Of a stretch of DNA of 64,000 bases, positions 3,876 through 16,001 are shown in pieces (the first letter of the stretch is position 1; each line of letters starts with the position of its first letter). This DNA comes from Candidatus Fervidifonticultor quintus (GTDB taxonomy: Bacteria > Sysuimicrobiota > Sysuimicrobiia > Sysuimicrobiales > Humicultoraceae): assembly GCA_031459535.1 (NCBI GenBank), contig JAVKIJ010000001.1, forward strand, positions 68,503-132,502, read 5' to 3'. Under the pieces are notes generated by a model. It saw nothing but the letters and a program-made list of their open reading frames with translations, had not been told where the DNA came from and did no database searches. A program made the translations under genes and the position numbers.

Positions 3876-4541
3876 CTACGCAGCGTTCAGGATCTCAGCC
3901 AGGAACGCGGCCTCCGGCTGGGCACCTTCGAAGCCGCCGGTCTCGTTGATAACGACCTTCGGCACCCCGTAGACATGGTAACGGGCTGCCAACTCGGGGA
4001 ACTCCATGGCCTCGTACACATCGGCCCGAATCCGGGCTGACTCCTGCGCAAACGCGTGCGCCAGGCGCGCGGCCTTGGGGCAGTAGGGACAGGTCGGCGT
4101 CACGAAGACTTTGAGGTGCACATCCCTCTGGAGGCTGGCCAGCGCTGCCCGGGTCTGCGCCGACAGCCCGCTGTCGCCGCGGGAGACCGCCACTAAGTCG
4201 TCGAGGAAAGCCGCGAACTCGAACCCCGACGGGATCCCGTAGTACCGTAGGTTGTTCTGGCCGTTGCGGCCGATCAGCACCGCCGGCAGGTGCTCGATGG
4301 CCAGGGCGCGGGCGGTGACCGGGTCGCCGGCCGTGCTGTGGACCTGCAGGCGAATGCGGGGGTCGAGGGCCGCGACCTCCTCGAGGAGCTGCCTGGTGGT
4401 TTCGCAAGTCTCGCAGTCGCGGCCGGGAACCGCCAGGCCCCCGATAGTGTTGACGAAGAGCCTCACCGTGACGTCGCCGGCTAGCTCAGCCTGGAGCCGC
4501 TGCCGGACCTGCTCGGCCTGCTTGGCGCTCATGAGAGCCAT
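3876..4541 (-). CDS. Protein-disulfide oxidoreductase (two thioredoxin folds; AhpF-NTD/PDO-like)
   Basis: CETC and CPYC motifs, GIPSGFEF, VYGVP. Confidence 0.88.
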   Translation of the reverse strand: MALMSAKQAEQVRQRLQAELAGDVTVRLFVNTIGGLAVPGRDCETCETTRQLLEEVAALDPRIRLQVHSTAGDPVTARALAIEHLPAVLIGRNGQNNLRYYGIPSGFEFAAFLDDLVAVSRGDSGLSAQTRAALASLQRDVHLKVFVTPTCPYCPKAARLAHAFAQESARIRADVYEAMEFPELAARYHVYGVPKVVINETGGFEGAQPEAAFLAEILNAA

Positions 4542-4588
4542 TGCGCATCGCTCCTTCCCAGGAATGTTCCCAGACGCGGGCATAACCG

Positions 4589-4631
4589 TACCCTGTAGGG
4601 TATAATAGCAAACGTCTTGCGGATCTGTCAA
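4589..4631 (-). promoter_or_regulatory. Sigma70-type promoter with overlapping CsoR/CstR-type operator
   Basis: TTGACA (4631-4626), 18 nt, TATTAT (4607-4602); palindrome TACCCT-GT-AGGGTA at 4589-4602. Confidence 0.75.
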
Positions 4632-4738
4632 CAGGCTGGCGAGGCTGGCGCCGGCGGTTGCCGGTGGCGGAGCTGGGTGGTAGGATAAGTTGACTTCGGG
4701 GGCCGCGGGGCCTCGAGGCCGCGTCTGGAGGGGTGGCG

Positions 4739-4957
4739 GTGAATGAAGTCATCCTGATCGTTCACCTGGTCGTGTCCTTGGCTCTGATCGGGATCATCCT
4801 GCTGCAGGGGCCCAAGGGCGAAGGGCTCGGCGCCATCGGCGGCAGCGCCCGGATGTTTCACGGACCGCGCCCGCGCGAGACGCTGCTCACGCGGATTACC
4901 GCCGGCGCCTCGGTGTTGTTTCTGGTGACGGGTGGACTGCTGGTCTTCTTGAAGTAG
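4739..4957 (+). CDS. secG: Preprotein translocase subunit SecG
   Basis: Two TM helices around LLQGPKGEGLG; LTRIT; tpiA-secG-tRNA-Leu context. Confidence 0.92.
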   Translation: MNEVILIVHLVVSLALIGIILLQGPKGEGLGAIGGSARMFHGPRPRETLLTRITAGASVLFLVTGGLLVFLK

Positions 4958-5037
4958 CGCGACTGGCCGCGTGGGCGCCCAGGCGGCAGTGGAGGGAGCT
5001 CTGGCAGGAGGCCTGCCAGGGCTCCTCGCGTGGTGAG

Positions 5038-5412
5038 ATGCCCCCTGTCCTTGCCATAGCCCTGATGGTGGCCGCCGCGACCGCTCCGGCGCCGTCGTGG
5101 AAGGCGCTGTACCCCGGCGCGTATGGGGTGACCGTGCCGGCTGGAAGCGTCAAGATGCTGACGCTGCCCATCCCGTCCAGGCTTGCCAGCGCCGAGCGCC
5201 CGATGAGCTTCGCCTGGATTGTCCTCCGCCCTCTTCCCATCCCGGTCATGGTCGTCATGGAGCAGTGCAACCAACCCGACGTCTGCATTCCGTTGATCAT
5301 GCGCGCGAGCGGTCAGGGGAGCGGGACGACGGTGACCACCTTCAGGGTGACCAATCGGAGCGGGCGGGCGCTGGACGTCCAGTTCCGTTACACCATCTGG
5401 GACGCGCGCTGA
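5038..5412 (+). CDS. Hypothetical secreted beta-rich protein
   Basis: Signal-peptide-like N-terminus; no recognisable family. Confidence 0.55.
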   Translation: MPPVLAIALMVAAATAPAPSWKALYPGAYGVTVPAGSVKMLTLPIPSRLASAERPMSFAWIVLRPLPIPVMVVMEQCNQPDVCIPLIMRASGQGSGTTVTTFRVTNRSGRALDVQFRYTIWDAR

Positions 5413-5433
5413 GGGCGCTGGCGTCGGCGGCGT

Positions 5434-5463
5434 TTGACACCCCGAAATCGGCGTTCCTATAAT
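5434..5463 (+). promoter_or_regulatory. Consensus sigma70 promoter for tRNA-Leu
   Basis: TTGACA 5434-5439, 18 nt, TATAAT 5458-5463. Confidence 0.8.
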
Positions 5464-5513
5464 GAAGTGCGCTTTCTCCCGACGGCCTCGGTCGGGCCCA
5501 CCGCGCGTGCAAT

Positions 5514-5599
5514 GCCGGGATGGCGGAACTTGGCAGACGCGCACGCTTGAGGGGCGTGTGGGGTTTCCCGTGGGGGTTCAAATCCCCCTCCCGGCACCA
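5514..5599 (+). tRNA. tRNA-Leu(GAG)
   Basis: GCCGGGA/TCCCGGC acceptor stem, CACGC-TTGAGGG-GCGTG anticodon arm, long variable arm, GGTTCAAATCC T-loop, encoded CCA. Confidence 0.97.
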
Positions 5600-5610
5600 A
5601 GTGTTGTCAA

Positions 5611-5657
5611 GGCGATGGAGTCCGCCTGAACCGCCCTGACGGGCTGATGGCTCCTAC
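5611..5657 (+). ncRNA. Fluoride riboswitch (crcB motif), copy 1
   Basis: GGCGATGGAGTCCGCC...GCCC-TGAC-GGGC-TGATGGCTCCTAC matches the crcB consensus including the GGAG/CTCC pseudoknot. Confidence 0.92.
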
Positions 5658-5688
5658 CCAACTCAGCGGGTAGGAGCCCTCTCTGTTC
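5649..5688 (+). terminator. Riboswitch expression-platform terminator-like hairpin
   Basis: GGCTCCTACCC/GGGTAGGAGCC stem overlapping the aptamer 3' end; weak pyrimidine tail. Confidence 0.6.
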
Positions 5689-5711
5689 CCGCTGTCAACA
5701 GAGGCGGATCC

Positions 5712-6908
5712 GTGGAGCAGGTCTGGTTCACCGCAGCCATCTGGCTTGGACTCGCCCTCATCGCCACCCTCCTGTCGATCTGGCTGCGGGTGTCCGTCGC
5801 CCTAACCGAGATCACCGTGGGCATGGTGGCCCAACTGGTCGTCGCGGGAATCGCCGGGCCGGGGGCGCTGGGTGCCCGGGAAGGATGGATCGCCTTCCTG
5901 GCCGGCCTTGGGGCGATGGTGCTCACGTTTCTGGCCGGCGCAGAACTCGACCCGGACTCCTTCCGAAGGAACTGGAAAGAGGCAACCGTCATCGGGCTCG
6001 TGGGATTCTTCGCGCCGTTTCTGGGAGCCACGTGGGCGGCGCGGGCCTTGCTGGGGTGGGGTGTCCAGGCCAGCCTGCTTGCCGGCGTCGCCCTCTCCAC
6101 CACATCGGTCGCCGTCGTCTACGCCGTACTCCTGGAGCTCGGCCTCAACCGGACTGCCTACGGCAAGATCATTCTCGCTGCCTGCTTCATCAACGATCTG
6201 GGCACGGTGGTCGCTCTGGGCCTGATCTTCGCACCGTTCACGCTGCGCAGCCTGGCGTTTGTCGTGGGCCTGGGGGCGGGCCTTGCGGTATTGGTCCGGG
6301 CCACCGGCGCGCTTTTTGGGCGGTACGGGGGGCGGACTTCAGAGCTCGAGGCCAAGCACCTGCTGTTCGGCCTCTTTGTGCTGGGCGGGCTCGCGGTATG
6401 GTCGGGCTCCGAGGCGGTGCTCCCTGCCTACCTCATCGGCATGGTCCTGGCGGGCACCGTGGGCCGTGATCAGGCCCTGGTCAGGCGGCTCCGGACGCTG
6501 ACCTTCGGGTTATTGACCCCCTTCTACTTCATCCGGGCCGGATCGTTCGTCGATGTGCCTGCGGTGGTGGCGGGTCTCGGCGTGTTCACCGTGCTCTTCC
6601 TGGCGAAAGCGGTCAGCAAGTTCGTCGGCATCTTTCCGCTGACGCGCCGGTACGGCTATCCCCACAATGAGGGCATGTACACCACGCTGTTGATGTCCAC
6701 CGGCCTGACGTTCGGCACCATCGCCGCGCTCTACGGCCTCTCTCACGACATCATCACCCAGAAGCAGTACTCGTTCCTCGTAGCCACGGTGATCGCGAGC
6801 GCTGTGGTACCCACCTGGGTGGCCAACAAGTTTTTCCTGCCGGTGCGCCATCTCCCGTCCGAGGAGGCACGCGACCCCCAAGATGCGCTGACGGCTGAGC
6901 CCGAGTAG
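5712..6908 (+). CDS. Cation:proton antiporter (CPA2/Kef-like, membrane domain only)
   Basis: Many TM helices; FLAGAELD, ALSTTSVAVV, ACFINDLG, LMSTGLTFG. Confidence 0.88.
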   Translation: MEQVWFTAAIWLGLALIATLLSIWLRVSVALTEITVGMVAQLVVAGIAGPGALGAREGWIAFLAGLGAMVLTFLAGAELDPDSFRRNWKEATVIGLVGFFAPFLGATWAARALLGWGVQASLLAGVALSTTSVAVVYAVLLELGLNRTAYGKIILAACFINDLGTVVALGLIFAPFTLRSLAFVVGLGAGLAVLVRATGALFGRYGGRTSELEAKHLLFGLFVLGGLAVWSGSEAVLPAYLIGMVLAGTVGRDQALVRRLRTLTFGLLTPFYFIRAGSFVDVPAVVAGLGVFTVLFLAKAVSKFVGIFPLTRRYGYPHNEGMYTTLLMSTGLTFGTIAALYGLSHDIITQKQYSFLVATVIASAVVPTWVANKFFLPVRHLPSEEARDPQDALTAEPE

Positions 6909-6936
6909 AGATGCAGGAATGCGGAGGGAGCGGACA

Positions 6937-7356
6937 ATGATCACGCACATCCTCATTGCTCACGACGGTTCCGATGTGGGGCGGCGGGCGGTTGAAGTCG
7001 GCACCGACCTGGCCCTGCGCTATGGGGCGAAAGCGACTCTGCTGACGGCGATTCAATATCCCGCCTATGCGGCCACGGTGGACGAGGTCCAGGGCGCCGA
7101 CGAGGAGCAGCGGGCCTTCGCCGAACGGGTCCAGCGTCAGGCGATCGAGTACGCTCGGATGCGCGGCCTCGACATGTCGGTCGCGATTGTGGCGGGCCAT
7201 CCGGCCGAGGTGATCGTGGACTATGCAGGGCAGCACGGGATTGACCTGATCGTGATGGGACATCGGGGGCTGTCCGGGTTGAGGCGGTTTCTGGTGGGCA
7301 GTGTTGCGGACCGAGTGGTGGATCACGCACCATGCATGGTGTTGGTGGTGAGGTAG
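6937..7356 (+). CDS. Universal stress protein (UspA family)
   Basis: ILIAHDGS; DLIVMGHRG...FLVGSVADRVV. Confidence 0.93.
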   Translation: MITHILIAHDGSDVGRRAVEVGTDLALRYGAKATLLTAIQYPAYAATVDEVQGADEEQRAFAERVQRQAIEYARMRGLDMSVAIVAGHPAEVIVDYAGQHGIDLIVMGHRGLSGLRRFLVGSVADRVVDHAPCMVLVVR

Positions 7357-7468
7357 GGGGCCGGGACGCGGCCCGGCGGCTGACGCCCACTGTGACCGGT
7401 GTGGGACTGACCAGCCTGTTCTTTTGACTGGAGTCATAAGCTGGTCCCGGCGCTCATCGACGCCGGGC

Positions 7469-9085
7469 CTACGGGCTCGCCGCAGACACGGGGCTTGGGG
7501 GCATGCCGAAGACGCGCCGATACACGTCCTCTCCATGGCTGGTGGCGAGCGGCTCGCCTTCCAGGATTCGGTAGGTCCGACGCCCGTCGGGGAGTCGTTC
7601 GGCGCGAAGGAAGAGAGCCTCATCCAGTTGCTGCCGGTGCAGTGAGCGTGCGAGATCGAACAGGTGGGTGACGAAGACGATTCGCACACCGAGGTCCGCG
7701 AGCGCTCGGAGCACCTGGCGCGCGATCTCTGATCCTTCGCGCTCGTTGGTGGCAGCAAAGGACTCGTTGAGAAGAATGACAGAGTCCGGGCGGACGTGAT
7801 CGATGATCTCACTCATACGCCGCAGTTCTTCGTCGAACTTGCCGCTTCTCATCTCGACGTCCTCTTCCCTCTTGAAGTGGGTGAAGAGACCGCGGCAGAG
7901 GCTGGCGTGGAACGAGCGGACCGGAACGATCATACCCGCCTGCATCATCAGTAGCGCCGTGCCGATCGTGCGCAGGAAGGTGGACTTGCCGCCGGAGTTG
8001 GGACCGGTGATGATCAGGAGATTCTTCCGGTTCGCGTAGAGGTCGTTGGGGACCACGGGGCTATCGAGAGTCAGGGCGAGAGTGACGTCGTGCAGGCCCT
8101 GAAACGACAGCCGCCGCTCGCTCGCGGGAGAGGGCAGGGGCAGGGACGTGGGGTACCCCTTGCGGGTCAAGGATTCGTGGAGATTCAGACAGCCGATGTA
8201 GAAGGCGAGTTCCGCTCGCAGCATGGTGAAGAAGTCGCGCACGTGGTTGGCGGCTTGGCCCAGGGCGTCGGCGGCCGAGGCAGTGGCCCGATTGCGGAGC
8301 TCGGCCAGGGCCTGGACGCCGGCTTCGTCGCGGGGGGAGAGCTCGAAGCGATAGGTGGCTGGGTGCTCTTCGAAGAGGTTCTTCCACCAGTCGATCCAGG
8401 CTCGCCTGCGGGCCGAGGTCCGGTGCAAGCGGTAGTGGGTGCCCTTGTTGGCGGGGCCGAGCTCGGCACTGAACAGCAGGCCGTGTGGGAATGTGAGGTC
8501 GTGCAGGTGGCGTTCGACCGCTGTGAGGTAGTCGCCGCCGAGGTTCTGTTGGACCATGGCGAAGAACGTGGTCCAGGCCTGGGCGCCGAAGTGCCGTGCG
8601 TGGAACTCGGCGAGGTCGCGGAGCTTCCGGAGCGGTCCGAGGAGCTTCGTCATCGTCTCGCGGGAGTCGCGGAGCACCCAATCCGGGTAGCGAGAGAGCA
8701 CGCCGAGATAGTGCCCCCTCAACGGTTCTGTGGCTTCCACCGCGAGGGCGTAGAGATGGCGGACCACAGCCGGTTGGCGGAGGCAATCGGCCAGAACACA
8801 CTGACGATACAGAATCGTGTCGAGATCACCTTGCACGGCCTCCAGGAGGACTCTGCGGCTGACCTCAAAGACCCAGTCGTCGCCCCGTGCCATGGCGTCC
8901 AGGAGGGGAATCAGGGCCAGGTCCCGCTCGAGGTCCTCGGCGTTCCAGGGAAAGCCGGCATGGGGATTGAAGCCAGCGGGACGGGAGCGTCGTTGTCCAG
9001 TACGCGCGGCGGTGCGCTCCACTGCCGCCTGCTGTACGTGCTCCCAGTCCAGATCCAGCGTGGGATGCAGAAGGTGGGCCTTCAT
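7469..9085 (-). CDS. MutS-family ATPase (truncated type, no mismatch-binding or Smr domain), subunit B
   Basis: IITGPNSGGKST Walker A, THFKREED, SGKFDEEL, LLNESFAATN, VTH; ATG overlaps the upstream TGA. Confidence 0.88.
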   Translation of the reverse strand: MKAHLLHPTLDLDWEHVQQAAVERTAARTGQRRSRPAGFNPHAGFPWNAEDLERDLALIPLLDAMARGDDWVFEVSRRVLLEAVQGDLDTILYRQCVLADCLRQPAVVRHLYALAVEATEPLRGHYLGVLSRYPDWVLRDSRETMTKLLGPLRKLRDLAEFHARHFGAQAWTTFFAMVQQNLGGDYLTAVERHLHDLTFPHGLLFSAELGPANKGTHYRLHRTSARRRAWIDWWKNLFEEHPATYRFELSPRDEAGVQALAELRNRATASAADALGQAANHVRDFFTMLRAELAFYIGCLNLHESLTRKGYPTSLPLPSPASERRLSFQGLHDVTLALTLDSPVVPNDLYANRKNLLIITGPNSGGKSTFLRTIGTALLMMQAGMIVPVRSFHASLCRGLFTHFKREEDVEMRSGKFDEELRRMSEIIDHVRPDSVILLNESFAATNEREGSEIARQVLRALADLGVRIVFVTHLFDLARSLHRQQLDEALFLRAERLPDGRRTYRILEGEPLATSHGEDVYRRVFGMPPSPVSAASP

Positions 9086-10614
9086 GGACGAACGCGTTCT
9101 CGGATCGCGTCGTACGTCAGGCCGTGCTTCCGCGCCAGTGTCAGGGCGTAGGCAAGGCCGTCGGCGGGCCGCCGGACGATCTTGAAGGTGCGCACCTCGG
9201 GATTGTCGGGGGTGACCGTGGCGACCATGCTGACGGTCTTGGCGCTCCACGAGGCCAGCTCATCGAGGAATGTCACCCACACGCAGAAGGCGTCGAGCTC
9301 CGAGATGGCAGAAATGACTTGTCTGGCCAGAGAAAGAGCATCGCGCAAGGTGGTGGAGGAAAAAACCTCGTTGATGACGAGGACACTGCTGGCTGTGGCA
9401 GCTTGGAGGATCTGGTGGATCCTGAGCACGTCGTGCTCCAACTGGCCCTGGGGGCTCGCGACGGGCTCCCCTCGTTCGAAGTGGCTGAAGATCCGATCCG
9501 GCAGAGATAGCCGCGCTGAGGCGGCTGGGACGGGGCATCCCAGTGACGCTAGGTAGTGAAGCTGACCGAAGGTGCGGGCAAAGGTGGTCTTTCCACCCTG
9601 GTTTGGACCGGTGACGATGATGATGCGCTCCGGATCATTCAGGCAGAAGTCGTTGCACACCGGCAGGGAGCCCTCTCGGACGAGTCTGGCCGCCAGCGCC
9701 AGATCGAAGCACTGATGAGCGTACACCCGCTGGGACGAATCGCCGATCCGAGGATAGCAGAAGTTCAGACCCGCACGCTTCATTGGTGCGATGTACTCGA
9801 GATAAGCCATGTAGAATTGCACTTCTCGGTCAAAGGCCTCGATAGCGGGTTCGAGGAACGATCCATGGGCGCCGCGAAATGCGGCGAGGTCGGCGAAGAG
9901 TTCGGGGTACAGGGCTGCGACGCCGTCGAGGACTTGGGCCTCGACGTGGTTCATGTTGGAGGAATTTGGGAAGGTGAACTGGTAGCCAGAAGAGTGGGTC
10001 TGGCGGAAGCGTTGGAACGTGTGGGTGATTTCTGCGCTGTAGTCGGTCTCACCCTGGTGGTGGCGCACCTCGACGAGCAATCCGCGGATGAGGGTAGCGT
10101 AGCGGAGCGAGGAAAGCGCAGCCCGAAGACGGTCGGCTTCGTCTCTGAGTTGCCTGAAGGCCGGCCCAGATGCGTAGGCGAGGAGGAAGCGGCGAAACTC
10201 CAGGAGCCCGGCGGACTGAAGTCGCGCGGCGGAGAGGTGCTCGGCTAGGCGGGAAACGGCGTGGCAGTAAAGCCCGACGGCATCCAGGAACCAGCGCTCC
10301 TGCTGCCGCTGCCAGTACGCTTCTCTGGAGAGAGCGAGATGCGATCGAACGGTGCGCATGGCCGATGCAAAGTCAGCCACCTGGGCGAACAGCATGGAAT
10401 CTTCCAGATCCTTCATGACCGCCTGGCGGAAGAGGACCCCGCGGACCGAGGGGAGAGGGGTGTAGAAGAACGGGTTGAGATGATACTCCTCGCGGCCGGC
10501 GGCGACGCCGTTGACGACTTGGTCGAGAAGCAAGTCGGTAAAGAACGGCGGAGGCTCTGGCTGGAGGACCAGGCGCGCCTGATCGGGCGGAAAGAGCAGG
10601 CTCAGCCTCGTCAT
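9082..10614 (-). CDS. MutS-family ATPase (truncated type), subunit A
   Basis: IVTGPNQGGKTT Walker A, SHFERGE, GQLEHDV, VINEVFSSTT, AYALTLARKHGL. Confidence 0.88.
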   Translation of the reverse strand: MTRLSLLFPPDQARLVLQPEPPPFFTDLLLDQVVNGVAAGREEYHLNPFFYTPLPSVRGVLFRQAVMKDLEDSMLFAQVADFASAMRTVRSHLALSREAYWQRQQERWFLDAVGLYCHAVSRLAEHLSAARLQSAGLLEFRRFLLAYASGPAFRQLRDEADRLRAALSSLRYATLIRGLLVEVRHHQGETDYSAEITHTFQRFRQTHSSGYQFTFPNSSNMNHVEAQVLDGVAALYPELFADLAAFRGAHGSFLEPAIEAFDREVQFYMAYLEYIAPMKRAGLNFCYPRIGDSSQRVYAHQCFDLALAARLVREGSLPVCNDFCLNDPERIIIVTGPNQGGKTTFARTFGQLHYLASLGCPVPAASARLSLPDRIFSHFERGEPVASPQGQLEHDVLRIHQILQAATASSVLVINEVFSSTTLRDALSLARQVISAISELDAFCVWVTFLDELASWSAKTVSMVATVTPDNPEVRTFKIVRRPADGLAYALTLARKHGLTYDAIRERVRP

Positions 10615-10946
10615 GGCTTCGGCATCTGACGCTCGCATCGTAAGAGCAGCCCGCGCGCGGGCTCGAATCCTGGTTGGTCGTCGAGGATCTCGCGCAGGAT
10701 CTTCGCCGCGTCGGCGAACTGGCGTTGCTCGACGAGACTGTGGGCGAGGTGTAAGCGAAAGTGTGGTTCATACGGGTTGAGCCAAACAGCCAGCCGGAAG
10801 AAGCGCTCGGCAGGTTGGTACGCTTCGCACTTCATGAGATGTGCGCCGATTCGATCCTCGGCGTATCCCAGATGGGGACTAGGGCGCAGCAGTTCGTTGC
10901 GTCGCTCGTGAGGCGTGCCCCGGGTTCGACGCGCCGCCGCTACCAT
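10611..10946 (-). CDS. Small tetratricopeptide-repeat protein
   Basis: AERFFRLAVWLNPYEP and AAKILREILDDQPGF TPR patterns; overlaps both neighbours. Confidence 0.75.
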   Translation of the reverse strand: MVAAARRTRGTPHERRNELLRPSPHLGYAEDRIGAHLMKCEAYQPAERFFRLAVWLNPYEPHFRLHLAHSLVEQRQFADAAKILREILDDQPGFEPARGLLLRCERQMPKP

Positions 10947-11668
10947 CGCCACACCACGCCCGGCGCACCCACGTACTTGTGGAGCACACGCTGCCAGGAG
11001 GTGGCCTCCCCCTGGCTCATGGGCTCGTGCCTAAACCGATAGTCGTGCTTTCGCCAGAATTCCGACAGGTCGTTCAACAGACCCTCCAGGAGCGCTCGCT
11101 CCGCATTCGTTAGCCACTCGAGGTCCGAGGAGGACTCGGTCTGGGTCATCACGGTGGCGAGATGTCGGAGACACAACCCCAGGCTCGACGCGTAGCGGGC
11201 GCGGAAGTCCTCGTCCGGCAGCGCCTGGGCCGTGGCCCACGTGTACCGCTCCTCCGCCTGCCACTGGTCGGCGCAGGCGAGGCAGGGCCGCTGGGGAGTC
11301 AGCCATGCTGACAGGCTGCGGCCGAGCCCTCCGTTCGATCCACCGAACAACGCCAGGCGCAGCCCGACGGGCTGACTCACGCGTCCAGCGGCTTCCGTAA
11401 TGAAGGTGTCATAGAACTCCTGCAGCAGATGGCGATAGACAATGGCGATGCCGGTCTGGCTGTCCAGGATGTGTGTCAACCGCCAAGCGTGCGCCGCGCA
11501 GAAACCGCGCGAGGCGAGCAGGTCCTCTCGGGTCCAGGGGTCATTGACCCGCTCGTACAGAAATCCGTCGATCAGCCGCTCGACCCCCTGCACGCTGAGA
11601 TGACAGACCGCGCAGTGCTGCCAGTCGAGGGCATGATAGACCGCGAGGAACAACTGGTCGTGCTGCAT
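10940..11668 (-). CDS. DUF6062-like protein with duplicated CxxC...CxxH motifs
   Basis: CAVC...YERVND...GFCAAH and CLAC...GLCLRH; C-terminal RKHDYRF. Confidence 0.8.
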   Translation of the reverse strand: MQHDQLFLAVYHALDWQHCAVCHLSVQGVERLIDGFLYERVNDPWTREDLLASRGFCAAHAWRLTHILDSQTGIAIVYRHLLQEFYDTFITEAAGRVSQPVGLRLALFGGSNGGLGRSLSAWLTPQRPCLACADQWQAEERYTWATAQALPDEDFRARYASSLGLCLRHLATVMTQTESSSDLEWLTNAERALLEGLLNDLSEFWRKHDYRFRHEPMSQGEATSWQRVLHKYVGAPGVVWRW

Positions 11669-11671
11669 GGG

Positions 11672-12118
11672 CTATCGGCGCTCTCCAACGGGGCTGTCGC
11701 GCCCGGGCCGTGGTCCTGCACCATCGCCGGTGCTGATCAGACTGGCCTCGAGCTCGGCCACGGCCCGACGCAGCCGATCGTGCCGTGCCCGCTGGATGGC
11801 CAGCGATCGCTGATACTGGGCGTTGGACGCTTCCAGCCCCGTGATGTTGAGACGGAGAGTGCGGATGGCCTCATCGGCCAGGTAGGCCCGGTGCCGGAGG
11901 ATAGCCATCTCGGCCCTGGCAGCCGACCACTCATTGTGGAGCTGTTCGGTGGGTCGCTCCGATGCCGTCAATGCGTCAGCGGCATATGCCAGGAGGATCT
12001 TGACTCCCTCCTCAGGCGTCCAGCCCCTCTCGCGGATGAAGGCCTCGAACCGCGTACGGAGCCGGGCCGGGATCGGAACGGCGATCCGCTCCATCCGTGG
12101 AAAGACGAACTCACTCAC
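11672..12118 (-). CDS. Hypothetical protein: RHH-like N-terminus plus coiled coil
   Basis: IAVPIPARLRTRFEAFIRERGWTPEEGVKILL followed by a heptad-rich helix; coupled to the upstream stop. Confidence 0.7.
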   Translation of the reverse strand: MSEFVFPRMERIAVPIPARLRTRFEAFIRERGWTPEEGVKILLAYAADALTASERPTEQLHNEWSAARAEMAILRHRAYLADEAIRTLRLNITGLEASNAQYQRSLAIQRARHDRLRRAVAELEASLISTGDGAGPRPGRDSPVGERR

Positions 12119-12593
12119 GCCTGAACCTGCCCACGCCAAGGAGCCTGGCCAACCGGTTTCCCAGCGCCTGTGGACGCCTAGGCGATGGCGTCGGTGCAGT
12201 CAGCGCCTCTCGAAGTGATCGAAGCTTCGCGTCCAGCGCGTCCGTCTCACGTCGCAGAGGCCACATCTGCCCCCGGTTGGTCCGTAGCTCAGCCCCCAGG
12301 GCGTGCACCCTCTCCGAGAGCTCATGCATGAGTTTCTCGCTGGCAATGGTGCGGGCACGCAGGGACACCAGGAGGGCCTCGGTCTCCCGTCGCTTGAGTT
12401 CCTCACGCCGCCTCTGGGCGTCGAGGCCCGATTCTCCCTCCAAGGCTCGCCAGGAGGCTTCGTCCTGGGCGAACAGATCGATCCCCTGCTCCAGGAGCCA
12501 TGGCAGTCCCGCGTCGACTTCACGGCCGGCCATCTCAAGGGCTCGCCGGATCACAGCCCAGTCGTCGCTCAGCAACTCTACATCGATTGTCAT
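12111..12593 (-). CDS. Hypothetical protein: RHH-like N-terminus plus coiled coil; first gene behind riboswitch 2
   Basis: IDVELLSDDWAVIRRALEMAGREVDAGLPWLLEQG followed by a long coiled coil; AGGAG upstream. Confidence 0.7.
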   Translation of the reverse strand: MTIDVELLSDDWAVIRRALEMAGREVDAGLPWLLEQGIDLFAQDEASWRALEGESGLDAQRRREELKRRETEALLVSLRARTIASEKLMHELSERVHALGAELRTNRGQMWPLRRETDALDAKLRSLREALTAPTPSPRRPQALGNRLARLLGVGRFRRE

Positions 12594-12619
12594 TGCTTCA
12601 GCGAACTCCTGCATCCCGT

Positions 12620-12658
12620 AAACAAGAAGCCCCTACCGATCCACAGATCAGTAGGAGC
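12620..12658 (-). terminator. Intrinsic terminator of fluoride riboswitch 2
   Basis: GCTCCTACTGATC-TGTG-GATCGGTAGGGGC followed by TTCTTGTTT. Confidence 0.8.
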
Positions 12659-12699
12659 TATCAGCCTCGCGACATGAGGCGACGGCGAGCTCCATCGCC
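12651..12699 (-). ncRNA. Fluoride riboswitch (crcB motif), copy 2
   Basis: Minus strand GGCGATGGAGCTCGCC-GTC-GCCTC-ATGTCGC-GAGGC-TGATAGCTCCTAC. Confidence 0.9.
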
Positions 12700-12727
12700 T
12701 ATTCGATTTGAGCCTGCTTTGTAACAC

Positions 12728-12757
12728 AGTCTACCTTACCGGAAGTCACTGTGTCAA
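12728..12757 (-). promoter_or_regulatory. Sigma70-type promoter for the riboswitch-2 operon
   Basis: TTGACA (12757-12752), 18 nt, TAGACT (12733-12728), ~30 nt before the aptamer. Confidence 0.6.
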
Positions 12758-14112
12758 CGCGCCGAATCGCGCCGCCTGAGATCTTACCCTGGGGCCTATC
12801 GTCGCGTCATAGAAGATCTTACCGAGCCAAACCGGCATGCCAGGGTCCTGGGAGTAGAGATGAGCCCTACGTCGAGACGAGAATACATCCAGGCAATCCG
12901 CCAGCGCTATGTCCGCGCCCCGCGTGCTGTCAAGCAGCACCTGCGCGATGAGGTCTGTGCCGTGACTGGGTACCAACGCAAGTACGCTAGCCAGGTCCTC
13001 AACAGCGCGTCCCCGGCCAAGCACCCGTGTCCCCGGCGGCGCCGGGCTCCCACGTACGGCGCCAGGACCATCGCCCTCCTGGCCGCAATTTGGGAAGCCG
13101 CCGGGTACCCCTGGTCGGCGCGGCTCAAGGCCCTGCTGCCGCTCTGGTTGCCCTGGGCCACGCCGCGGTTTGCGATCACCCCCGAGCAGGAGCGCAGTTG
13201 CTGACGATCAGCCCCCGGACCATCGACCGTCGCCTCGAGGCCACGAAAACCCACCTGCGGTGCCGCCTCTATGGTCGCACCAAGCTTGGCACGCTACTCA
13301 AGCACCACATCCCCCTCAAGACCGATCGGTGGGACGTCACCACCCCCGGCTTCGCCGAGACGGACTTGGTCTCGCACTCCGGCAACGCCGCCGACGGCGA
13401 GTTTGTCCACTCCCTCAATCTGACCGACATCCAGTGCACCTGGGTCGAAACCCGCGCGGTGCTGGGCCGCGGGCAGACCGGCGTCCTCGCAGCCGTGGAC
13501 GAGATCGCGGAGGATCTCCCCTTTCTCCTGCGAGGACTAGACGCCGACAACGGCTCCGAGTTCATCAACCACCACCTCTTCCGGTACTGCCAGGACCACG
13601 GGATCCAGCTCACCCGCGGCCGGCCCTACAAGAAAGACGACAACGCCCACGTTGAGCAGAAGAACTGGACGCACGTCCGCAAGCTTCTGGGCTGGGATCG
13701 CTACGACTCCCACCAAGCCCTGGAGGCGATCAACGACCTCTACCGCCACGAGCTCCGGCTCATGATGAACCTGTTCCAGCCCTCGGTGAAGCTCGTCCGG
13801 AAAGTCCGCGTCGGCTCCCGGCTCAAGCGGGTCTATGACCGGCCCCAGACGCCCTTGGATCGTCTCCTGGCCACCGGCGCTGGCGACCCGGCGAAGGTCG
13901 CCGCCTTCCAGCAGCTGCGCACGCGCCTGGATCCCTTCGCGCTCACCCAGCCGATCGATCGGAAACTCGCCCGAATCTACCGCCTCGCGAACCACCGCCC
14001 CAGCCTCCCGTGCGTCGCCCCGCCACAAGGTCCGCCAGTGAAGTGCAAGGGGTGGGGTCCCGGCAGTGCCGCCGCGGAGGACTGGTTCGTCATCCGCGCG
14101 AAAGCAGACTGA
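12752..14112 (+). mobile_element. Defective insertion sequence (rve/DDE transposase, ISNCY/IS481-like); right end not found
   Basis: Possible TGT left end; 22-nt repeats TCGCG(C/T)C-N5-AGATCTTACC at 12767-12788 and 12802-12823; transposase downstream. Confidence 0.7.
12860..14112 (+). pseudogene. Integrase-core DDE transposase with a frameshift near 13194
   Basis: N-terminal ORF 12860-13204 continues in another frame (QLLTISPRTIDRRL); ETDLVSH, DADNGSEF and DNAHVEQKN catalytic motifs. Confidence 0.85.
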
Positions 14113-14149
14113 GAAAGCCCTGGGGCATCCTTCGGTGGAGGATTTTGCC

Positions 14150-15991
14150 ATGTTCGGATGGACCGGAAACATCCTCAGAGTCGATCTGACGCACAAGACA
14201 TTCCGAAGAGAGACGTTCGACGAGGCATTCGCCCACAAGTGGATCGGCGGCCGGGGATTCGCCGTGAAGACTCTCTGGGACGAGCTCGAACCGGGCATTG
14301 ATCCCTTGGGGCCCAAGAACAAGTTCGTCGTGGCCCTGGGCCCCATCGCCGGCATTGCCGCGCCCAATACGGGCAAGACCGTGGTCGCGGCCAAGTCGCC
14401 GCTGACCGGAGGGTACGGGGACGGCAACCTGGGCACCCGGGTCACGGAGCAACTCCGAAAGGCCGGCTACGACATGCTCATCGTCGAGGGGGCGGCGGAA
14501 GCACCCACGGTCCTCTTCATCGAGGATGATCGGGTGGAGTTCCACTCTGCCGCCGAGGTCTGGGGCCAGGGGACGTACGCAACTCACCACTGGATCTACG
14601 AGCGCTACGGCAAGACGGTTGGGGTGCTGGTCATCGGGCCCGGAGGGGAAAACCTCAACCGCTATGCCGTGGTCCGGAGCATGGAGGGACGCTCGGGCGG
14701 CCGGCCCGGGATGGGCGCGGTGATGGGGTCGAAGAAACTGAAGGCCATCGTGGTGAGGGGGCGCGGGTCCGTTCCCCAGGCCGATCCCGCAGCCATGAAG
14801 AAGCTGGGCTCCGCCGACCTGCGCGCGGTGCACCAGATCGACAAGAAGACCGGTTGGTCCCTCCAGGGCACCACCGGCATTCTCGCGTGGTGCAATGAGG
14901 TGGCCGCGCTGCCGGTCCGCAACATGAGGAAGACCCATCACCCTGATGCCAGGTTCATCGACGGGGAGCGGCTGCACGAAGCGCGGGTGGCGACCTACGG
15001 CTGTCCGATCTGCACCATGCCCTGCGGGATCGCCATCCACGACCGCGAAGGCCGGGAGTCCGAACTCGACTACGAGAACATCGGCATGCTAGGCAGTAAC
15101 CTGGAAATCTTCGAACTCGACCAGGTTGGCTCCCTCAACTTCCTGTGCGACGACTACGGCCTGGATACCATCTCTGCCGGCGGCGTCCTCGCCTTCTACG
15201 CCGACGCCATCGACCGGGGAGCGGTCAGTGGCGATTTCCGGTTCGGCGATGGCGAGCGAGCCAAGGTGCTGCTCCGTCTGGCGGCCCTCAGGGAAGGGGA
15301 GGTGGGCAACCTGCTGGCCGAGGGCACCATGCGCATGGCGCAGAGATTCGGCCGGGGCTCAGACGCCTACGCCATGCACGTCAAGGGGATGGAGATCTCC
15401 GCGTACAACTGCAAGCTCTCGCCCGCCATGGCCCTGGCGTACGGGACGAGCCCGATCGGTGCGCATCACAAGGACGCCTGGGTGATTACCTTCGAACTCA
15501 ACCAGACGGTTCGGGATTCCTACGGCCGGGAGAAAGCTCAAAAGGTCGTCGAGCTGCAGAGGATTCGGGGAGGCTTGTTTGAGTATCTGATTGCGTGCCG
15601 CTTTCCCTGGATCGAGGTCGGCTGGGAACTCGATCACTATCCGGTGTATTTCAACACCGTCACCGGGCTCCACTGGACGCTGGACGACTTCTGGAAGGTC
15701 AGCGACAGGATCTACGCACTCATGAAGTTCTTCTGGTTGCGGGAGTTTCCGGATTGGAACCGCAAGATGGACTACCCGCCTATGGTCTGGTTCGATCCCG
15801 CCAACGCCGATACCGACGGACCCATCGCGGGCAAGGTCCTCGATCTGGCACAGTACGACCGCCTCCTGAGCCACTACTATGATCTCCGCGGCTGGGACGA
15901 GAGAGGCGTGCCAACCCGGAGGACGGCGGCAGCCCTCGGCCTCGAGGACGAAGCTCGGCGGGCGGAGACGTTCGGAAGGTTGGAAGACTGA
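14150..15991 (+). CDS. Tungsten-dependent aldehyde:ferredoxin oxidoreductase (AOR family, FOR-like)
   Basis: IGGRG, KSPLTGGYGDGNLG, GRPGMGAVMGSKKLKA, CPICTMPC, DDYGLD, YYDLRGWDERGVP. Confidence 0.92.
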   Translation: MFGWTGNILRVDLTHKTFRRETFDEAFAHKWIGGRGFAVKTLWDELEPGIDPLGPKNKFVVALGPIAGIAAPNTGKTVVAAKSPLTGGYGDGNLGTRVTEQLRKAGYDMLIVEGAAEAPTVLFIEDDRVEFHSAAEVWGQGTYATHHWIYERYGKTVGVLVIGPGGENLNRYAVVRSMEGRSGGRPGMGAVMGSKKLKAIVVRGRGSVPQADPAAMKKLGSADLRAVHQIDKKTGWSLQGTTGILAWCNEVAALPVRNMRKTHHPDARFIDGERLHEARVATYGCPICTMPCGIAIHDREGRESELDYENIGMLGSNLEIFELDQVGSLNFLCDDYGLDTISAGGVLAFYADAIDRGAVSGDFRFGDGERAKVLLRLAALREGEVGNLLAEGTMRMAQRFGRGSDAYAMHVKGMEISAYNCKLSPAMALAYGTSPIGAHHKDAWVITFELNQTVRDSYGREKAQKVVELQRIRGGLFEYLIACRFPWIEVGWELDHYPVYFNTVTGLHWTLDDFWKVSDRIYALMKFFWLREFPDWNRKMDYPPMVWFDPANADTDGPIAGKVLDLAQYDRLLSHYYDLRGWDERGVPTRRTAAALGLEDEARRAETFGRLED

Positions 15992-16001
15992 GCCGCCGAC
16001 G

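Follow-up and report, generated by a model that had tools for sequence, protein, structure and literature searches.

Convergent fluoride riboswitches bracket most of a predicted three-riboswitch regulon in Candidatus Fervidifonticultor quintus

Introduction

What is known of fluoride biology is built at present on two families of exporters, Fluc (CrcB) and CLC-F, and the locus described here raises the question of what fluoride riboswitches would control in a lineage where neither family is found. The locus lies in a stretch of 64,000 nucleotides from Candidatus Fervidifonticultor quintus (GenBank assembly GCA_031459535.1, contig JAVKIJ010000001.1, positions 68,503 to 132,502; hereafter the window), in which two fluoride riboswitches face each other across eight genes just after a tRNA-Leu gene. 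A third fluoride riboswitch in the same genome precedes a transporter gene of the major facilitator superfamily (MFS). Our analysis favors a reading in which the block between the two switches makes up most of a three-riboswitch fluoride regulon, to which we assign a probability of roughly 75%.

In the published account of this riboswitch class, fluoride binding stabilizes the aptamer and blocks the terminator, and the genes behind it are switched on (PMC2864571, PMC11139923). After the exporters, Na+/H+ antiporters come next in frequency among the gene classes associated with the riboswitch and have been read as serving pH homeostasis, while genomes without both exporter families are mostly those of reduced symbionts (PMC11139923). 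Genes for MutS and K+ transport are also among those downstream of the crcB motif (Weinberg 2010, PMC2864571), so that the antiporter and MutS-like genes, which the original prediction for this locus had called known riboswitch neighbors, are such neighbors in print.

Results

Two fluoride riboswitches with terminator platforms

Judged by sequence and predicted pairing, the two elements are true aptamers of the fluoride riboswitch, each with a terminator as its expression platform, and fluoride binding is predicted for them. The whole window was scanned on both strands with Rfam at gathering thresholds and yielded two matches and no others, each to the fluoride riboswitch model RF01734 and each above its gathering score of 34 bits (Table 1); the P1 stems of riboswitch 1 and riboswitch 2 begin at positions 5611 and 12699, respectively. 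In both leaders, the 3' strand of the aptamer doubles as the 5' arm of a terminator hairpin, and in riboswitch 1 this arm is the pseudoknot strand. The hairpins fold with z-scores of -4.0 (riboswitch 1) and -5.4 (riboswitch 2), and 0 of 200 shuffles were equally stable in either case. The original prediction had described two crcB-consensus aptamers, each with a terminator-type hairpin, that point inward from the ends of a ~7 kb block after tRNA-Leu and leave all eight genes behind one switch or the other; the Rfam scores, the overlapping hairpins, the coordinates, the strands, and the gene order all agree with this description.

Pairing in these aptamers is preserved across a broader set of copies. 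We aligned 53 aptamers from the order and from other phyla, using a model that was built from the order's own copies and therefore favors the structure; in this alignment 97.6% of cells are paired, compensatory double changes occur in 9 of 12 pairs, and the covariation score was reached by 0 of 500 shuffles. The compensatory changes preserve P1, P3, and the pseudoknot, with two covarying pairs falling in the pseudoknot itself (GGAG/CUCC versus GAGG/CCUC). The Rfam-consensus core nucleotides are present in the aptamers, and a competing terminator that overlaps the 3' strand of the aptamer is present in all 30 riboswitch copies of the order.

A third riboswitch and modular cassettes

RF01734 matches the source genome at a third place, on contig C100 (513-577, 39.1 bits), with a TTGACA...TACAAT site directly upstream. 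With this additional switch, the regulon extends beyond the block. The description of the block as a self-contained island therefore did not hold up: the third riboswitch is placed to drive the MFS gene, whose orthologue lies inside the module in relatives, where it fills the gap between recognized genes in all seven of the seven blocks inspected. The convergent module itself is not unique to the source genome. A convergent riboswitch pair occurs in four relatives (G001, G004, G005, and G012), with the two switches 4.4-4.7 kb apart, and these gene cassettes, differently ordered and frequently beside crcB, stand behind fluoride riboswitches in several phyla, which is the conserved synteny that the original prediction had proposed to look for.

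Within the order, these genes travel as modular cassettes, namely the antiporter with or without the universal stress protein (USP) (cassette A), the MutS-like pair (cassette B), a pair of coiled-coil proteins of 167 aa and 155 aa with or without DUF6062 (cassette C), and the MFS transporter (cassette D). A collinear form, seen on metagenome contigs L135, L138, L157, and L189, runs from a switch through C, DUF6062, and MFS to a second switch followed by antiporter, USP, and MutS-like a. The window version has A inverted, B behind C, an extra gene for a tetratricopeptide repeat (TPR) protein, and D separated. Cassette C provides the first gene behind 16 of the 30 riboswitches in the order (for L022, the 155-aa homologue alone was detected); the remaining first genes are the antiporter (9), MutS-like a (2), crcB (2), and the USP remnant with MFS described below (1).

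The stretch of C100 at 513-2189 (L127) contains the third riboswitch, then a USP remnant, and then an intact MFS gene. The remnant is short of ~47 residues at the N-terminus, and its frame is lost close to the end; the MFS protein has 401 aa and matches MFS_1 (PF07690) with 92.9-97.5 bits against a cut-off of 33.4. Genes beyond MFS on this contig belong to sugar metabolism and were left out of the regulon. The C100 copy looks like a second operon of the order riboswitch, antiporter, USP, MFS from which the antiporter would have been lost, and its aptamer is of the GAGG/CCUC type, as are those that precede the antiporters with 44-46% identity in G004, G005, and G006.

Canonical exporters in the genome and in the order

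Searches of the source assembly (G000; 3.12 Mb, 138 contigs, 88.85% complete, 5.24% contamination) gave 0 matches to CrcB/Fluc (PF02537) and 0 to CLC (PF00654), and tblastn with the CrcB of a relative reached a best E of 0.37. In 14 control genomes, the same searches recovered CrcB in 11 and CLC in 12. Across the order, which we surveyed in 41 genomes including G000, CrcB is present in three (G022, G028, and G036) and CLC in three (G020, G025, and G036), with PF00654 making no distinction between CLC-F and chloride CLCs; neither family was found in 36 of the 41. Both searches were likewise empty in all six genomes of the source genus (84-98% complete) and in G012 (4 contigs, 97% complete), which carries the same convergent riboswitch pair. 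Gaps in the assembly are no explanation, as the exporters go unfound in relatives as well, and the searches of the genome and its order support the view that a Fluc or CLC-F exporter is missing.

RF01734 is present in 17 of the 41 genomes, 13 of which have neither CrcB nor CLC. One genome, G022, is unpublished; when it is excluded, the riboswitch is present in 16 of 40 genomes and CrcB in 2 of 40, and 1 of 29 riboswitches drives crcB. The MFS gene tracks the riboswitch closely: 14 of the 15 genomes with MFS also have a riboswitch, the exception being G029 (72% complete), and MFS is present in 1 of the 24 riboswitch-less genomes.

The MFS transporter outside the order

When species genomes were scanned with the MFS alignment, 570 of 599 candidates were confirmed as relatives. 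The best 80, about 56-75% identical, come from Chloroflexota, Planctomycetota, Bacillota, Nitrospirota, Cyanobacteria, Desulfobacterota, and archaeal metagenome-assembled genomes (MAGs), and the closest named records are those of Candidatus Fervidifonticultor (phylum Sysuimicrobiota). All MFS locus counts outside the order refer to these 80 relatives, 15 of which have less than 1.5 kb of upstream sequence; riboswitches were called with the order-derived model at 23 bits or more, and neighbors were called by tblastn at a coverage of at least 50%. On this basis, 33 of the 80 loci have a riboswitch, which lies upstream on the same strand in 25. The genes of the window recur around MFS, with antiporter and USP at 15 loci each, MutS-like b at 10, MutS-like a at 8, DUF6062 at 7, and the 167-aa/155-aa pair at 2, and CrcB is a neighbor at 13. 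In Neomoorella stamsii, for instance, a riboswitch is followed by antiporter, USP, MFS, MutS-like a, and MutS-like b in this order.

Whole-genome exporter searches outside the order covered the genomes of the first 40 of the 80 MFS loci. Of these, 31 have RF01734, 11 have CrcB, 18 have a CLC of any kind, and 15 have neither exporter; 12 of the 15 exporter-less genomes have a riboswitch match, which is above the gathering score in 11.

Two further arrangements were seen among the MFS loci. The 4.8-Mb Bacillota MAG G052, which holds L058, has 10 RF01734 matches (E <= 0.001), of which three exceed the gathering score, but neither a CrcB nor a CLC match, which makes it another candidate for an exporter-less fluoride regulon. 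At L067, L070, L086, and L094, pairs of divergent fluoride riboswitches stand back to back on opposite strands ~100 nt apart, one of them leading into antiporter, USP, and MFS.

The predicted structure of the MFS protein (predicted local distance difference test, pLDDT, 78.4; predicted template modeling score, pTM, 0.56) resembles a large number of MFS folds to the same degree, SV2A, NorA, and OxlT among them. No NCBIfam subfamily cut-off was reached, the profile found no match among PDB sequences, and the Atlas name is only 'MFS transporter'. The fold match is generic and therefore offers no substrate clue.

DUF6062 and its link to the riboswitch

DUF6062 often stands behind a riboswitch in metagenomes. 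A metagenome scan confirmed 521 of 599 candidates as relatives, and counts refer to the best 80 loci (L128-L207). A riboswitch is present at 72 of the 80, upstream on the same strand at 67, and within 300 nt at 46; among the 13 loci without an upstream riboswitch, 5 have less than 100 nt of upstream sequence. The genes downstream on the same strand are, in number of loci, enolase (21), MFS of the C100 family (18), Na_H_Exchanger (8), a second DUF6062 (7), AAA ATPase (6), TauE (5), CrcB (4), and Metallophos (4). This tally leaves out one cluster (12 open reading frames, ORFs, at 6 loci; median 141 aa), which we took as an alternative frame over the antiporter; a further downstream cluster, of 203 aa, has no Pfam match. 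The commonest arrangement at these loci is riboswitch, DUF6062, and enolase in this order (21 of 80). Enolase is the classic fluoride-inhibited enzyme.

The protein itself is predicted to be of a zinc type, with two CxxC...CxxH sets (C19, C22, C57, and H60; C129, C132, C166, and H169) invariant in 10 sequences. Its predicted model is of high confidence and all-helical (pLDDT 88.6, pTM 0.81). Searches for a solved relative were empty or weak: Foldseek against the PDB gave a best E of 0.54, a wide VIA-align search reached no more than Z 4.8, for helical hairpins, and no PDB sequence matched the profile below E 0.44.

The eight-gene block and its transcription

The eight ORFs between the switches, two on the plus strand and six on the minus strand, are all directed inward (Table 1), and within each arm they overlap or are separated by gaps of at most 13 nt. 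The six minus-strand genes overlap or stand 3 nt apart, a tight packing that fits one operon. MutS-like ATPase b probably starts at the ATG at 9085, as indicated by the ATGA overlap of this codon with the stop of the upstream gene.

Table 1. Coordinates of the features of the fluoride-riboswitch block in the window.
Feature	Position	Strand	Evidence and remarks
Promoter-like site upstream of tRNA-Leu	5434-5463	+	sigma-70 type, TTGACA-18-TATAAT, 12/12
tRNA-Leu (anticodon gag)	5514-5599	+	ARAGORN
Fluoride riboswitch 1, aptamer	5602-5663	+	RF01734, 59.0 bits, E 8.4e-14, model positions 1-64
Riboswitch 1, terminator hairpin	5649-5688 including tail	+	terminator scan; stem 5649-5678, 11 bp
Cation/proton antiporter, 398 aa	5712-6908	+	PF00999 Na_H_Exchanger, 134.2 bits (cut-off 26.2)
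Universal stress protein (USP), 145 aa	6919-7356	+	PF00582, 122.1 bits (cut-off 24), full-length
Tail-to-tail spacer of the two arms	7357-7468		GC-rich hairpins, no T-tract terminator
MutS-like ATPase b, 538 aa	7469-9085 (longest ORF to 9250)	-	PF00488, 80.7 bits
MutS-like ATPase a, 518 aa	9082-10638	-	PF00488, 74.3 bits
Small TPR protein, 113 aa	10611-10952	-	TPR_19, 25.5 bits (cut-off 25)
DUF6062 protein, 242 aa	10940-11668	-	PF19538, 63 bits (cut-off 27)
Coiled-coil protein, ribbon-helix-helix (RHH)-like, 155 aa	11672-12139	-	no Pfam match above cut-off; start probably residue 8
Paralogous coiled-coil protein, 167 aa	12111-12614	-	no Pfam match; first gene behind riboswitch 2
Riboswitch 2, terminator hairpin	12618-12659 including T-rich tail	-	terminator scan; stem 12659-12628, 14 bp
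Fluoride riboswitch 2, aptamer	12645-12708	-	RF01734, 40.8 bits, E 7e-8, model positions 1-64
Promoter-like site for riboswitch 2	12728-12757	-	TTGACA-18-TAGACT, 10/12; just upstream of aptamer

The sole promoter-like site available to riboswitch 1 is the one before tRNA-Leu, and 2 nt separate the end of the tRNA gene (5599) from the start of the Rfam match (5602). Given this spacing and the lack of a promoter of its own, riboswitch 1 is probably co-transcribed with tRNA-Leu, with the riboswitch hairpin also ending the tRNA transcript, and the tRNA promoter would then probably drive the antiporter operon in the presence of fluoride. Promoter, tRNA-Leu, and riboswitch 1 are contiguous over 5434-5688, where a second promoter would not fit. 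Among 23 aptamer upstream regions of the order, riboswitch 1 is the exception: no tRNA abuts the aptamer in the other 22, most of which have, as read by eye and not from a scan, a TTGAC-type box within ~60 nt of it.

A tRNA beside the riboswitch was considered as a shared trait and rejected; ARAGORN, run on 16 riboswitch loci of which 15 belong to relatives, found tRNAs at one only (G001), of other kinds and 234 nt off. As none of these relatives' loci shows it, the tRNA-Leu junction is specific to the source genome. A 7-bp inverted repeat across the promoter of riboswitch 2 was likewise dropped as a candidate shared operator, having not been found upstream of the orthologous switches.

Proteins of the block

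In the antiporter, the PF00999 match spans residues 14-366, and TIGR00932 (CPA2 subfamily) scores 95.6 bits, below its cut-off of 238.3. Its closest solved relative is the CPA2 Na+/H+ antiporter NapA of Thermus thermophilus (4bwz; E 1.7e-6, residues 41-364). NapA has adjacent aspartates (D-D) at the ion-binding site, whereas the window antiporter has N-D aligned there. An N-D-type motif marks electroneutral exchangers.

The MutS-like pair matches solved chains of MutS, MutS2, and MSH only in the ATPase domain, about residues 290-535; no solved sequence matches the first ~300 residues, and PF00488 was the only MutS domain reported at E <= 0.01, with none of domains I-IV (mismatch-binding, connector, core, and clamp) among the matches. 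What the pair has in common with MutS, MutS2, and MSH proteins is the Walker A-bearing ATPase of domain V and an arrangement as pairs whose motifs are asymmetric; it differs from them by an N-E Walker B and by the lack of any other detected MutS domain. N-E takes the place of D-E in 11 of 11 orthologues of paralogue a and 12 of 12 of paralogue b from several phyla (L035-L040, L050, L058, L059, L087, L098, and L124), one further orthologue of a not being located by the Walker B pattern. MutS-like a has T-F where MutS-like b retains T-H, a difference that would fit an asymmetric heterodimer. It is tempting to speculate that the N-E Walker B is tied to the inhibition of ATPases by Mg-fluoride.

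By hhalign (probability 96%, E 2.8e-9), the 167-aa protein and the 155-aa protein are paralogues; both have a small domain at the N-terminus together with a long helical region. In the 155-aa protein, the N-terminus gives weak matches to RHH antitoxins of the RelB type (E 3.6e-4 and 1.3e-3), but a designed ankyrin (DARPin) scores better (E 3.1e-5); among the Atlas structure neighbors of the pair, the clusters named CopG, NikA, and VapB all fall below the tool's bar, and Pfam has no RHH match in either protein. The RHH reading is weak because the designed ankyrin outscores RelB and the Atlas rows are below the bar. For the small TPR protein, a homologue with 48% identity was seen in another phylum (L125, 4387-4833), directly behind a fluoride riboswitch.

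Discussion

Our observations favor a model in which each of the three switches would be an ON switch that works by transcription termination. When fluoride is absent, the aptamer's 3' strand would pair into the terminator and the transcript would stop; with fluoride, which the aptamer binds as an Mg-F cluster, the pseudoknot would retain this strand and the polymerase would read through. Switch 1, read from the tRNA-Leu promoter, would turn on the antiporter and USP; switch 2 would turn on the six-gene operon of the coiled-coil paralogues, DUF6062, the TPR protein, and the two MutS-like ATPases; and switch 3 on contig C100 would turn on the MFS transporter. We infer fluoride induction, protection, and the role of each protein from regulation and co-occurrence. 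The antiporter might shift the pH gradient, such that proton entry in exchange for Na+ or K+ favors the formation of hydrogen fluoride (HF) and its passive exit; fluoride distributes by the pH gradient, and a proton-importing exchanger would therefore push fluoride out as HF. The MFS transporter might move fluoride or a fluoride-linked solute, and DUF6062, the coiled-coil pair, the TPR protein, and the MutS-like ATPases might protect or regulate cytoplasmic targets. By its recurrence behind and beside riboswitches, the gene set is a putative accessory fluoride-stress set found across many phyla, which stands alone in this lineage since Fluc and CLC were not found there. We read MFS and DUF6062 as accessory functions because they are frequently co-operonic with crcB.

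Several observations weigh against the block and C100 forming such a regulon. Riboswitch 2 is only 6.8 bits over the gathering score, and its P1-P3 linker is 4 nt short of the consensus. The terminator tail of riboswitch 1 is pyrimidine-rich with few T (CTCTCTGTTC), and its termination efficiency is therefore uncertain. The source assembly is only 88.85% complete. Outside the order, 55 of the 80 MFS loci are without a same-strand upstream riboswitch in the available flank, and crcB adjoins MFS at 13 of 80 loci and DUF6062 at 5 of 80, such that neither is a simple substitute for crcB, as both often adjoin it. Finally, related genomes and repeated metagenome contigs, many from similar samples, are not independent counts.

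The alternatives differ in what they would have the regulon do. The aptamers might be relics or sense another ligand, with the genes expressed independently of fluoride; the shortened linker of switch 2 and its orthologues and their modest Rfam scores of 34-42 bits would fit this, but the aptamer and terminator design is conserved in all 30 copies of the order, the pairs covary up to and including the pseudoknot, and the consensus core is intact, for which reasons we give this explanation hardly any weight. It is also very unlikely that a canonical exporter exists and was missed, either in an unassembled region or as a protein too divergent for the Pfam models. CrcB is small and could escape an assembly of this completeness in 138 contigs, but the same negative was obtained in the six genomes of the genus and in the 4-contig relative, the search recovers CrcB in most controls and in three genomes of the order, and the best tblastn match to the CrcB of a relative has no better E than the 0.37 given above. 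A more open alternative is that the minus-strand operon, under the control of fluoride, is directed at nucleic acids rather than at ion homeostasis; the RHH-like pair would then bind DNA as a secondary regulator and the MutS-like pair would act on DNA. MutS domain V in both large proteins, the RelB-type match with its sub-bar CopG, NikA, and VapB rows, and the link to DNA damage proposed by Weinberg 2010 (PMC2864571) are in line with it, but the top row for the 155-aa protein is the designed ankyrin, domain V is the only MutS domain detectable, and the inverted repeat at the switch 2 promoter is not kept in relatives; on balance we regard it as rather unlikely.

A riboswitch-controlled transporter might instead provide the fluoride exit route that replaces Fluc and CLC-F, with MFS acting directly or the N-D antiporter acting via HF. 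As 13 of the 17 riboswitch-bearing genomes of the order are exporter-less, the regulon must act otherwise in them, and MFS, about 60% identical across phyla, follows the riboswitch (14 of 15 genomes with MFS, against 1 of 24 without a riboswitch). Moreover, 15 of 40 MFS-bearing genomes elsewhere are exporter-less, 12 of them with a riboswitch and one with 10 matches, compared with a background in which more than 85% of reference genomes have an exporter (PMC11139923). Against this, MFS is often co-operonic with crcB (riboswitch, crcB, and MFS in this order at L104, L105, and L114), the 40 MFS-bearing genomes are MAGs of unstated completeness in which PF00654 lumps CLC-F with chloride CLCs, and the fold match is generic with no solved relative of the profile; replacement of the exporters by either transporter is therefore a possibility that we place well below even odds. 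With similar reserve, we tentatively consider that free-living members of the order, and scattered genomes in other phyla, cope with fluoride through an unrecognized system under riboswitch control, by way of MFS or of HF exit through the N-D antiporter, with DUF6062 as a dedicated factor and without Fluc or CLC-F. The reading that we prefer remains that of an accessory regulon under three fluoride switches.

The system is in kind a standard fluoride regulon, with the canonical effector missing across the order and with riboswitch-linked families that are uncharacterized. Parts of it are in print, namely the riboswitch class, its terminator design, and links to mutS, to K+ or Na+/H+ transporters, and to USP (PMC2864571, PMC11139923, PMC7266159, PMC11777429, PMC5533749). 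With the crcB-motif regulon of Weinberg 2010, it shares the aptamer, the ON design based on terminator overlap, and the mutS-like and K+ or Na+/H+ antiporter genes. It differs from that regulon in that only 2 of the 30 switches of the order drive crcB and most genomes are exporter-less. The fluoride-resistance operon FRM of Enterobacter cloacae reportedly contains crcB, and if so the window module, which has none, departs from it in this respect. FRM likewise pairs a riboswitch with a multi-gene operon that includes USP (PMC5533749, PMC11777429).

The coiled-coil pair, DUF6062, and MFS go unnamed in main-text passages of published descriptions of the crcB-motif regulon, though Baker 2012 and supplementary gene lists may include them. 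Our literature search found no mention of DUF6062 and no paper that joins fluoride riboswitch, antiporter, and MutS; listings returned no paper on MFS as a member of a fluoride regulon, and supplementary tables may list such genes. For Sysuimicrobiota, no report on fluoride biology was found, and the main text of the phylum description contains neither 'fluoride' nor 'riboswitch'.

These 3-Mb genomes of a hot-spring lineage thus keep up to three fluoride riboswitches, yet no known exporter was found in them, and such an exporter-less lineage offers a natural background for testing the accessory genes, including the antiporter, USP, and the MutS-like pair. Three families for which we found no discussion in print are brought forward, DUF6062, MFS, and the RHH-like pair. 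A practical interest lies in strains engineered to make or break carbon-fluorine bonds, the growth of which is limited by fluoride stress (PMC11139923, PMC11777429).

The stretch is present in three DNA runs labeled hot springs metagenome; one metatranscriptome run contains 0.55 of its sampled words, which could be carried-over DNA. Finally, the surroundings of the block hint at a possible mobile ancestry. The flanking ORF at 13027-14112 has a sub-threshold match to an integrase core (rve, 23.6 bits against a cut-off of 32.6), GC content in 1-kb bins is 62-68% over window positions 4001-16000 as compared to 68-71% in the bins on either side, and the module occupies different neighborhoods in relatives.

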